DNA from: a virus
Taxonomy: Duplodnaviria > Heunggongvirae > Uroviricota > Caudoviricetes
Reading direction: 5' to 3' (one strand)
DNA: 16,366 nucleotides
IMG/VR virus record: IMGVR_UViG_2698536392_000011
Every line of letters begins with the position of its first letter. Position 1 is the stretch's first letter. Under the pieces are notes generated by a model. The model searched no databases. It saw nothing but the letters and a program-made list of their open reading frames with translations, and was not told the DNA's origin. This document shows, piece after piece, positions 11,080-13,079 of this stretch. The position numbers and the translations under genes were made by a program.

Positions 11080-13079
11080 CAGTGAAATACTACGCCATTC
11101 TGACTAATCAGGGCGCGGCACGACTGGCTAACGCGACGATGCTCGGCAGTAAGCTGAATCTGACGCAAATGGCCGTTGGTGATGCAAATGGTGTGTTACC
11201 AACACCAGACCCTGCACAAACAAAACTGATTAACCAGAAACGCATTGCACCGCTGAATCTTCTGAATGTTGACCCTAACAATCAGAGCCAGATTATTGCG
11301 GAGCAAATCATCCCTGAAGACGAGGGAGGATTCTGGATCCGTGAGATTGGTCTTTATGATGATAAAGGTGTACTCATTGCGGTGGCAAACTGCCCGGAAA
11401 CGTACAAACCGCAGTTGCAGGAAGGCAGTGGACGCACCCAGACTATCCGCATGATTCTGGTTGTCATGAACACCAAAGCCATCACGCTGAAAATCGACCC
11501 GTCTGTGGTTCTGGCAACCCGCAAATATGTGGATGATAAAATCTCAAAGCACGAGCAGTCACGACGTCACCCGGACGCCTCGCTGACCGCAAAAGGCTTT
11601 GTTCAACTCAGTAGCGCCACCAACAGCGATTCAGAAACGCTGGCGGCAACACCAAAGGCGGTAAAGGCAGCCTATGACCTTGCTAACGGGAAATATACCG
11701 CACAGGACGCCACGACAGCACAAAAAGGCATTGTCCAGCGCAGTAGCGCCACCAACAGCGATTCAGAAACGCTGGCGGCAACACCAAAGGCGGTAAAGGC
11801 AGCCTATGACCTTGCTAACGGGAAATATACCGCACAGGAGGCCACGACGGCACAAAAAGGAATTATCCAGCTCAGTAGTGCAACCAACAGCACATCTGAA
11901 ACGCTTGCTGCAACACCGAAAGCAGTGAAAGCAGCTAATGACAATGCGAATGGTCGGGTACCTTCTGCCCGTAAGGTGAATGGTAAGGCGCTTTCGGCGG
12001 ATATAACACTGACGCCGAAAGATATTGGTACGCTTAACTCAACAACAATGTCATTCAGCGGTGGTGCTGGTTGGTTCAAATTAGCAACGGTAACCATGCC
12101 ACAGGCGAGTTCTGTTGTTTCAATTACGTTGATTGGTGGCGCTGGATTTAACGTCGGTTCACCTCAACAGGCAGGTATATCTGAACTTGTTTTGCGTGCA
12201 GGTAATGGTAATCCGAAGGGGATTACTGGTGCTTTATGGCAGCGCACATCGACAGGGTTTACAAATTTTGCCTGGGTCAATACATCTGGTGATACTTACG
12301 ATATTTACGTTGCAATCGGAAATTATGCGACTGGTGTAAATATTCAATGGGATTATACCAGTAATGCCAGCGTGACGATTCATACGTCACCGGCATATTC
12401 TGCTAATAAGCCGGAAGGGTTAACGGACGGTACAGTTTATTCACTCTATACGCCATCAGAGCAGTTTTATCCGCCTGGCGCACCAATCCCGTGGCCATCG
12501 GATACCGTTCCGTCTGGTTATGCCCTGATGCAGGGGCAGACTTTTGACAAATCTGCCTACCCGAAACTTGCAGCCGCTTATCCGTCAGGCGTGATCCCTG
12601 ATATGCGTGGCTGGACGATTAAGGGCAAACCCGCCAGTGGCCGGGCCGTATTGTCTCAGGAACAGGACGGCATTAAATCGCACACCCACAGCGCCAGCGC
12701 ATCCAATACGGATTTGGGGACGAAAACCACATCGTCGTTTGATTACGGTACTAAAACGACCAGTTCATTTGATTACGGCACAAAAACCACAAATAGCGCA
12801 GGAGCTCATTCACACAATATACCTGTTGGTCACACTGGCGCGGGGAATGGTGTATCAGCCGGTTATAACGCTGCGTTAGGTACTGGTACCACGTCGAGCG
12901 CAGGAGAGCATGCTCACAATGTATATATCGGTGCCCATAACCACACTATCGGCATTGGTGCTCATGCCCATTCTGTCATTATTGGTCCCCACGGACACAC
13001 CATCACCGTTGATGCTACGGGGAACGCAGAAAACACCGTAAAAAACATCGCATTTAACTATATTGTGAGGCTTGCATAA
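11076..13079 (+). CDS. H: Tail fiber protein gpH, with conserved N-terminal domain, tandem fiber repeats and a His-rich C-terminal tip
   Basis: ATG 11076 overlaps the I stop (ATGA). 667 aa with a P2 gpH-like N-terminus ([20 protein letters not shown]...), three [30 protein letters not shown] repeats and five HxH motifs near the C-terminus. Confidence 0.9.
11578..11957 (+). repeat. In-frame tandem repeat inside H, 132-bp unit (44 aa), about 2.7 copies
   Basis: Units begin at 11610, 11742 and 11874. Copies 1 and 2 are identical for roughly the first 98 nt and differ at a few positions near the unit end; copy 3 is diverged and partial. Confidence 0.85.
12717..12800 (+). repeat. 30-bp in-frame tandem repeat inside H ([10 protein letters not shown] x2 then GTKTTNSA), with synonymous differences between copies
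   Basis: gggacgaaaaccacatcgtcgtttgattac / ggtactaaaacgaccagttcatttgattac / ggcacaaaaaccacaaatagcgca read directly from the sequence. Confidence 0.8.

Follow-up and report, generated by a model that had tools for sequence, protein, structure and literature searches.

A putative metal-stapled needle of the gp37/Stf family at the tip of a P2-type tail fiber encoded by an Escherichia coli prophage

The tail fiber gene H in the 16,366-nt stretch of phage DNA analyzed here (the window) ends in a histidine-rich segment with repeated HxH motifs. The initial annotation had read this segment as a possible metal-stabilized, receptor-binding needle of the T4 gp37 kind, grafted onto a P2-type fiber within a distal module of lower GC content. 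Do the motifs mark a needle of this kind, and did the needle reach a P2-type fiber by module exchange? In gp37, seven Fe ions are held by HxH pairs (PMC11705849). Each site in the crystal structure of the gp37 tip (2XGF) is octahedral and is made of six histidines, one HxH per chain from three chains, with the irons buried on the three-fold axis; the same HxH metal site occurs in R-pyocin fibers and in the P2 gpV spike, and another protein with an HxH site, T4 gp12, was crystallized with Zn (PMC6116203).

Six HxH motifs in the distal part of gene H

The RefSeq entry for the H product (WP_032206510.1) is labeled only "phage tail protein", and an NCBIfam search of H and of gene G returned no named family. 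H is placed after the V-W-J-I baseplate genes in the RefSeq gene order, and a Tail_P2_I domain was found upstream by Pfam. Within H, Pfam identified a Phage_tail_fib domain (aa 1–150), three Phage_fiber_2 repeats, and a Collar domain (aa 468–515, E = 3.8e-12), the P2-type Phage_tail_fib domain and the Phage_fiber_2 repeats scoring E = 2.4e-61 and 6.6e-62. A 132-bp tandem repeat of 2.7 copies was detected by TRF at 11591–11942, inside the P2-type part of the gene. The parts of H and its neighbor G are collected in Table 1.

Table 1. Positions in the window of fiber gene H, its parts, and the chaperone gene G.
Feature	Coordinates	Strand	Extent or content	Basis
Tail fiber gene H	11076..13079	+	667 aa, intact ORF	ORF list and translation
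P2-type proximal part of H	11076..11953	+	Baseplate-attachment domain and three Phage_fiber_2 repeats	blastn, TRF, Pfam
Shaft segment of H	12023..12461	+	aa about 316–462	blastn to JL22, tblastn, GC
Collar domain of H	12462..12680	+	aa 463–535	Pfam Collar, 2XGF alignment, lambda blastn
Outgoing needle strand	12681..12815	+	HTH 536–538, 10-residue repeats aa 548–577, HSH 578–580	
Distal tip loop, presumed receptor-contact cassette	12816..12908	+	aa 581–611 (31 residues)	
Return needle strand	12909..12998	+	HAH 612, HNH 621, HAH 630, HGH 639	
Conserved C-terminal strand back to collar	12999..13079	+	26 residues, plus stop codon	
Gene G, lambda-Tfa-type tail fiber assembly chaperone	13079..13657	+	192 aa, intact	Pfam Caudo_TAP, E = 1e-40

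H contains six HxH motifs: HTH (536–538), HSH (578–580), HAH (612–614), HNH (621–623), HAH (630–632), and HGH (639–641). The initial annotation had listed five, and all five are present as listed; the one it missed, HTH, is encoded by nt 12681–12689, 1–9 nt upstream of the start that it gave. Since this motif precedes position 12690, the feature should be taken to start at ~12681. The repeats reported to precede the motifs were also recovered, as three copies of GTKTT at aa 548, 558, and 568, which include two full 10-aa GTKTT(SSFDY) units. TRF did not detect the 10-aa repeat at the DNA level; recent slippage is therefore not its source.

Thirteen of the 16 histidines of H sit in its last 147 residues (aa 521–667), a tail whose composition is skewed to G/T/A/S/H, and the motifs of the return strand follow one another at an exact 9-residue period (612, 621, 630, 639). 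When the whole of H was shuffled, six HxH motifs were obtained in none of 20000 trials. Shuffling of the His-rich tail only, which yielded 1.05 motifs on average, gave six in 2 of 20000. Because shuffled sequences almost never give six motifs, the cluster is real and non-random.

Correspondence with the T4 gp37 tip

A profile search of the tip, proposed in the initial annotation, matched H aa 451–667 to residues 15–242 of the T4 gp37 tip structure 2XGF (phmmer against all PDB sequences, E = 8.3e-77). In a global alignment with T4 gp37 785–1026, we counted 144 identities over about 228 residues (about 63%). T4 histidines 883/885, 929/931, and 966/968 align with window histidines 536/538, 578/580, and 612/614, and T4 980/982, 989/991, and 998/1000 with window 621/623, 630/632, and 639/641. 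Hence, 12 of the 14 T4 ligand histidines pair with the 12 of the window, and only T4 H915/H917 has no counterpart. The suggested gp37-like needle is thus backed by homology rather than by analogy, with 12 histidines falling on six T4 iron sites; because one T4 iron site is absent, the window needle does not simply reproduce the solved one. A MAFFT alignment (A1) had placed HSH-578 on the second T4 motif and implied a "missing tip"; this was overruled by the HMMER and global alignments together with spacing arithmetic, from which a hairpin of consistent topology results.

The motif spacing points to a common architecture. HxH motifs start at 883, 915, and 929 on the outgoing strand of T4 gp37 and at 966, 980, 989, and 998 on the return strand; in lambda orf-314, they start at 141, 183, and 197 and at 245, 259, 268, 277, and 286, respectively. 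The span between the outermost motifs, outgoing minus return, differs by 15 residues in the window, 14 in T4, and 15 in lambda. These near-equal differences indicate the same out-and-back hairpin, with the number of rungs differing: the predicted needle has six metal sites in the window, one fewer than in T4 (seven) and two fewer than in lambda (eight). Compared with T4, the window (like lambda) has one additional 10-residue unit on the outgoing strand and one additional 9-residue G-x-G-A-H-x-H-x-V unit on the return strand, and its tip loop is 31 aa long against 34. The window shares with T4 gp37 the collar plus needle, an identical 15-residue C-terminus, and a homologous chaperone (gp38 / G), but its needle is carried on a 450-aa P2/P1-type proximal fiber, whereas that of T4 is carried on a 780-aa gp37 shaft. 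The C-terminal strand of H is near-identical to the C-termini of both T4 gp37 and lambda Stf. With Ur-lambda Stf (orf-401/orf-314), the window has the proximal needle layout in common (a 42-residue first spacing and four 9-spaced return motifs). Ur-lambda Stf, by contrast, carries eight HxH motifs, its tip loop is 45 aa long, and the distal 14-residue rung pair of lambda (lambda His 197 and 245) is missing from the window; the N-terminal attachment is to the siphovirus collar in lambda and to the P2 baseplate in the window. That the T4 gp37 and lambda Stf tips are related has already been described (PMC12617516, PMC9659904).

We also modeled aa 451–667 as a monomer with AlphaFold2, using a 50-sequence alignment. 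Mean pLDDT was 59, with 70–85 in the collar and about 50–58 in the needle, which showed no secondary structure. Foldseek, given this low-confidence model, returned 2xgf_A as its top PDB match (E = 1.3e-19, TM 0.34). As the needle was modeled at such low pLDDT, and as the Foldseek match adds nothing beyond the sequence, the model was dropped as evidence on histidine geometry.

From the alignments, the tip of H is very probably a metal-stapled needle of the gp37/Stf type; metal binding, the identity of the metal as Fe or another ion, and the trimer geometry we infer from the homologs. In such a needle, three H chains would extend to the distal end and then return, the region 12462–13079 forming the collar and a thin, six-stranded needle. 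At each of six levels, every chain would direct one HxH inward, and the six imidazoles would hold one metal octahedrally (Fe2+ in the T4 crystal), so that six buried ions would staple the H trimer and set its register. The Gly-rich, 31-residue loop at aa 581–611 would form a distal knob that touches the host receptor, and the G chaperone (lambda-Tfa/T4-gp38-type) would be needed to fold the tip. The DNA of the HxH motifs ("His boxes"), conserved on either side of the variable loop, would also offer homology for the exchange of tip cassettes between phages.

Mosaic similarity of H and G to P2, P1-like, and lambda phages

That P2, P1, Mu, lambda, and T-even phages have mosaic tail fibers was recognized by the early 1990s, and a 1992 P2 paper reportedly described such mosaicism. 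By blastn, P2-like DNA (Peduovirus P2_AC1, 72–84% identity) extends from gene I to nt 11953. From 12023 to 14265, the match is to the P1-like phage JL22, with 92.4% identity across its Stf-Tfa-acetyltransferase block. Similarity to lambda stf/tfa (84–89% overall) covers 12470–12816 (83.7%) and 12954–13641, and is interrupted by a 137-nt gap (12817–12953) that opens directly behind the second HxH motif ("His box" 2) and closes between boxes 4 and 5; the tip cassette of the window is unrelated to that of lambda at the DNA level. Beyond 11953, H gave no blastn match to P2_AC1, and the two C-termini were 18% identical in MAFFT alignment A1. No HxH motif was found in the P2_AC1 H protein. The shaft of H is common to Stf of JL22 and, distantly, to T-even gp37, and not to P2 or lambda; its aa 320–435 gave tblastn matches of 44–48% to T-even distal fiber subunits.

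The proposed graft onto a P2-type fiber is therefore borne out by mosaic matches to P2, P1-like, and lambda relatives, and because it is the similarity itself that is mosaic, module exchange is shown independently of composition. On these alignments, the tip is joined to a P2-type proximal fiber by recombination, and H as a whole is a mosaic in which a P2-type N-terminus is followed by a shaft and then by a collar and needle of the gp37/Stf type. Canonical P2 gpH shares with the window the N-terminal domain, the Phage_fiber_2 repeats, and the gene order V-W-J-I-H-G, while the P2-type H of P2_AC1 has an unrelated C-terminus and is accompanied by a G that differs in its N-terminal part. Salmonella phage STYP1 (Peduovirus) encodes a full-length P2-type H that is 58% identical over aa 24–667, with six rungs at the same spacing as in the window (42, 34, 9, 9, 9); its genes follow the canonical order V-W-J-I-H-G-FI, but its tip cassette is different and it has no acetyltransferase islet. 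The P1-like phages JL22 and Ro157c2YLVW, on the other hand, share the tip cassette (96% aa), tfa, and the downstream acetyltransferase with the window at 92% nt identity, and there the module sits on a P1-type fiber, unlike in the window.

Gene G adjoins H directly downstream. Its product shares 89% identity with lambda Tfa and 29% with T4 gp38 (E = 2e-18), and resembles P2-type G in its last 66 aa only. Being lambda-Tfa-like, and P2-like only at its end, the chaperone came with the tip.

Base composition gave a different picture. GC content is 0.576 in V-W-J-I, 0.499 in H, 0.459 in G, and 0.348 in the acetyltransferase islet. Thus, the distal genes are indeed more AT-rich than the proximal ones, as had been noted by eye. 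The same does not hold within H, where the interval singled out in the initial annotation (12690–13079) has a GC content of 0.482, against 0.498 in the N-terminal domain; the repeats are at 0.527, the shaft at 0.444 (the lowest), the collar at 0.566, and the needle at 0.486. Maximum-likelihood change points were placed at ~10753 (inside gene I) and ~13653 (at the end of G). The best change point inside H had an LLR of 1.1, which was equaled or beaten in 883 of 1000 codon shuffles. A lower-GC distal module in H must accordingly be given up, since there is no break along the gene, an outcome that had been named beforehand as refuting it. As no GC change point inside H was significant, such change points were not retained in support of a tip graft.

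Conserved scaffold, variable tip loop, and the possible host receptor

With aa 451–667 as query, a database search at E ≤ 1e-10 gave 1479 relatives. An alignment of 50 sequences showed every one of the 12 motif histidines in 49–50 of the 50 relatives (98–100%), with invariant glycines ahead of the motifs; the middle residue of HxH varies (T/A/S/N/G/Q), and conservation of His586, the lone histidine of the tip loop, reaches only 20%. Averaged by segment, identity to the query amounts to 0.90 (collar), 0.81 (outgoing strand), 0.37 (tip loop, 581–611), 0.76 (return strand), and 0.89 (C-terminal strand). Among 120 close relatives, we found at least 20 different loops of 31–48 aa between the innermost motifs, and the commonest layout among relatives is six motifs spaced (42, 34–41, 9, 9, 9). 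This pattern is the signature of a constant, presumably metal-stapled scaffold that carries a hypervariable, putative receptor-contact cassette. The loop at 581–611 is topologically equivalent to the T4 tip subdomain, residues 932–959 (PMC6957217).

A chromosomal region of E. coli strain 2013C-4830, and of a few other strains, matches the window at 100% identity; it is annotated in RefSeq as a decaying P2-like prophage with IS600 copies at both ends. Might the motif cluster then be a relic, inherited and no longer functional since the prophage makes no particles? A truncated terminase, frameshifts in capsid gene N and baseplate gene J, a tape measure gene split by an IS3 element, and an FI-FII-E-T-U block inverted relative to the P2 order all favor a relic. 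Against it, H and G are intact ORFs that retain every ligand histidine, and the tip cassette is found 95–100% identical in 213 of 5426 complete E. coli genomes (about 4%), on chromosomes and on plasmids of about 90–100 kb, as well as in JL22 and Ro157c2YLVW, which are active P1-like phages. The needle as such is present in 573 phage records. We give the relic reading even odds. The intact ORFs and the widespread, near-identical cassette argue for a functional allele, even if unused here; because the prophage that carries it is defective, H is probably silent, and the H/G pair in this strain is probably a silent reservoir, not in active use.

A second possibility is that the HxH motifs serve chiefly as "His box" landmarks, in DNA or protein, for the exchange of tip cassettes, metal binding being secondary. 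A recombination role for the "His box" was reportedly put forward in the work of Tetart and Krisch on T-even fibers; our literature search for the term found nothing. The similarity to lambda does end at box 2 (12816) and restart between boxes 4 and 5 (12954), relatives carry many cassettes between identical flanking boxes, and a 2.2-kb module is common to P1-like phages at 92% identity. A role in recombination does not exclude a structural one, however, and the histidines are conserved at the protein level while neighboring codons and the middle residue vary. The 10-aa repeats have also diverged at the DNA level, TRF having detected none. Conserved histidines together with DNA-diverged repeats indicate selection on the protein. 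Moreover, the T4 substitutions H929A and H931A are lethal (PMC6957217). We therefore regard landmarks as the chief role of the motifs as rather unlikely.

The remaining alternative, an exposed surface without a buried site that mimics a metal or siderophore receptor, as in the "Trojan horse" hypothesis proposed for HxH-bearing fibers (PMC11705849), or else a chance low-complexity His tail, for which the G/T/A/S/H bias might speak, is very improbable, given that the irons of the homologous crystal structure are buried on the three-fold axis (PMC6116203), that homology at E = 8e-77 rules out chance, and that the exact 9-residue periodicity and the invariant Gly/His pattern fit a structural repeat.

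If the tip of H is a gp37/Stf-type needle, as we favor, which receptor might its loop contact? Essential residues of the T4 tip are I933, N937, G938, G940, G942, G943, S947, and Y949, and K945, I951, and Y953 make up an OmpC-specific patch (PMC6957217). The scaffold positions I933, G940, G942, and Y949 are kept in the window as I582, G588, G590, and Y597, but the OmpC patch is not: K945 corresponds to V593, I951 to a gap, and Y953 to A599. As all three patch positions are replaced or deleted, the T4 receptor cannot be assumed for the window tip. OmpC is bound by Ur-lambda Stf as well (PMC12617516). The receptor of the window tip is probably an outer-membrane protein or LPS (core sugar), and not necessarily OmpC.

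We further considered whether the six-rung tip and the downstream acetyltransferase might form a portable "bind-and-mask" unit, swapped between P2-like and P1-like plasmid prophages. In this scheme, the short needle with its 31-residue cassette may recognize a receptor that is neither OmpC nor glucose-terminated LPS, and the AT-rich hexapeptide acetyltransferase, encoded at 13701–14273 on the minus strand, could mask the same receptor by acetylating a polysaccharide on the lysogen surface. We hold such a unit to be improbable. The acetyltransferase islet accompanies this cassette in 3 of 3 catalogued phage records, but an exclusive association was rejected, as 530 E. coli genomes have the islet and 213 have the cassette.

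Little of this biology is new. Earlier work has established the iron-stapled needle of gp37/Stf, the Tfa/gp38 chaperone, and the exchange of tips between P2, P1, lambda, and T-even phages, and the H tip is an uncharacterized but ordinary member of a well-known family. The gain is in part one of annotation, since H can now be named as a P2-type fiber whose needle belongs to the gp37/Stf family and has six HxH sites. Needles with six, seven, and eight HxH motifs, whose 10-aa repeats on the outgoing strand are coordinated with 9-aa repeats on the return strand, also provide a tidy illustration of needle-length variation. Lastly, the presumed specificity cassette is now bounded (aa 581–611; DNA cassette 12817–12953), which is useful for host-range engineering.

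A defective prophage and its cargo

The prophage locus (L001) is defective and rearranged. The capsid gene N, like the baseplate gene J, carries a frameshift, the terminase is truncated, and an IS3 element splits the tape measure gene. With the P2 gene order as reference, the FI-FII-E-T-U block is inverted, and IS600 is present at both ends of the locus. A further frameshift breaks the SASA-domain gene, which is similar to the NanS-p esterases known from STEC prophages; it sits between the lysis genes and the tail genes R/S, an unusual position for cargo in a P2-like element.

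Features of the prophage and of two P1-like phages
Feature	Record	Position	Strand	Details
SASA-domain gene	window	5657-7535	+	DUF1737, SASA (sialate O-acetylesterase-like) domain, DUF6645
Spike gene V	window	8666-9232	+	Pfam 'GpV Apex motif' (PF18946)
Baseplate gene J, frameshifted	window	9583-10478	+	two ORFs, 9583-10074 and 10032-10478
Tandem repeat in H	window	11591-11942	+	132 bp, 2.7 copies, 89% identity
Hexapeptide-repeat acyltransferase gene	window	13701-14273	-	within islet 13658-14429
Stf-tip/tfa/acetyltransferase block	JL22 (L003)	4666-7622		
Stf-tip/tfa/acetyltransferase block	Ro157c2YLVW (L008)	4725-6022		

A repeat in the tail fibre and a second HxH site

The tandem repeat in the tail fibre gene H codes for three Phage_fiber_2 repeats. 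It also matches Stx phage fibres and two structures of the tail fibre protein S from Mu (5YVQ and 8JU3). The P2-like similarity of H stops at 11953, just past the repeat, which suggests that this site is a recombination hot spot.

The C-terminal end of the gene V product, VHTHKHGG, matches PF18946; it is the iron-binding HxH site known from the membrane-piercing spike in P2. The tail that includes H therefore encodes a second, independent HxH metal site.

With regard to the T4 fibre gp37, we noted that the record used as the T4 reference (OL964745.1) is a laboratory mutant clone with the substitution Y953H in the gp37 tip. Residue 953 falls inside the published OmpC-binding patch, and is a tyrosine in the crystal structure of the tip (2XGF), unlike in OL964745.1.

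The acyltransferase gene and its P1-like counterparts

Immediately 3' of the chaperone gene tfa lies an AT-rich islet (GC 0.35) with an acyltransferase gene. Its existing annotation is 'serine acetyltransferase'; its product scored under all NCBIfam cut-offs, the top match being EpsC (74.6 versus 150 bits). The gene is possibly one for surface-polysaccharide acetylation, that is, for lysogenic conversion. Of 5426 complete E. coli genomes, 530 carry it and 213 the variable tip cassette of H; the acyltransferase thus accompanies the lambda-type tfa rather than one particular tip.

In the P1-like phages JL22 and Ro157c2YLVW, an acyltransferase gene likewise directly follows tfa, with ~91% nucleotide identity to that of the window. 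The Stf-tip/tfa/acetyltransferase block there adjoins S/U (or U') tail fibre genes in the opposite orientation. In P1, this is where the invertible alternative fibre segment is located. Given this shared site, the module seems, in these two P1-like phages, to be one of two switchable host-range cassettes.
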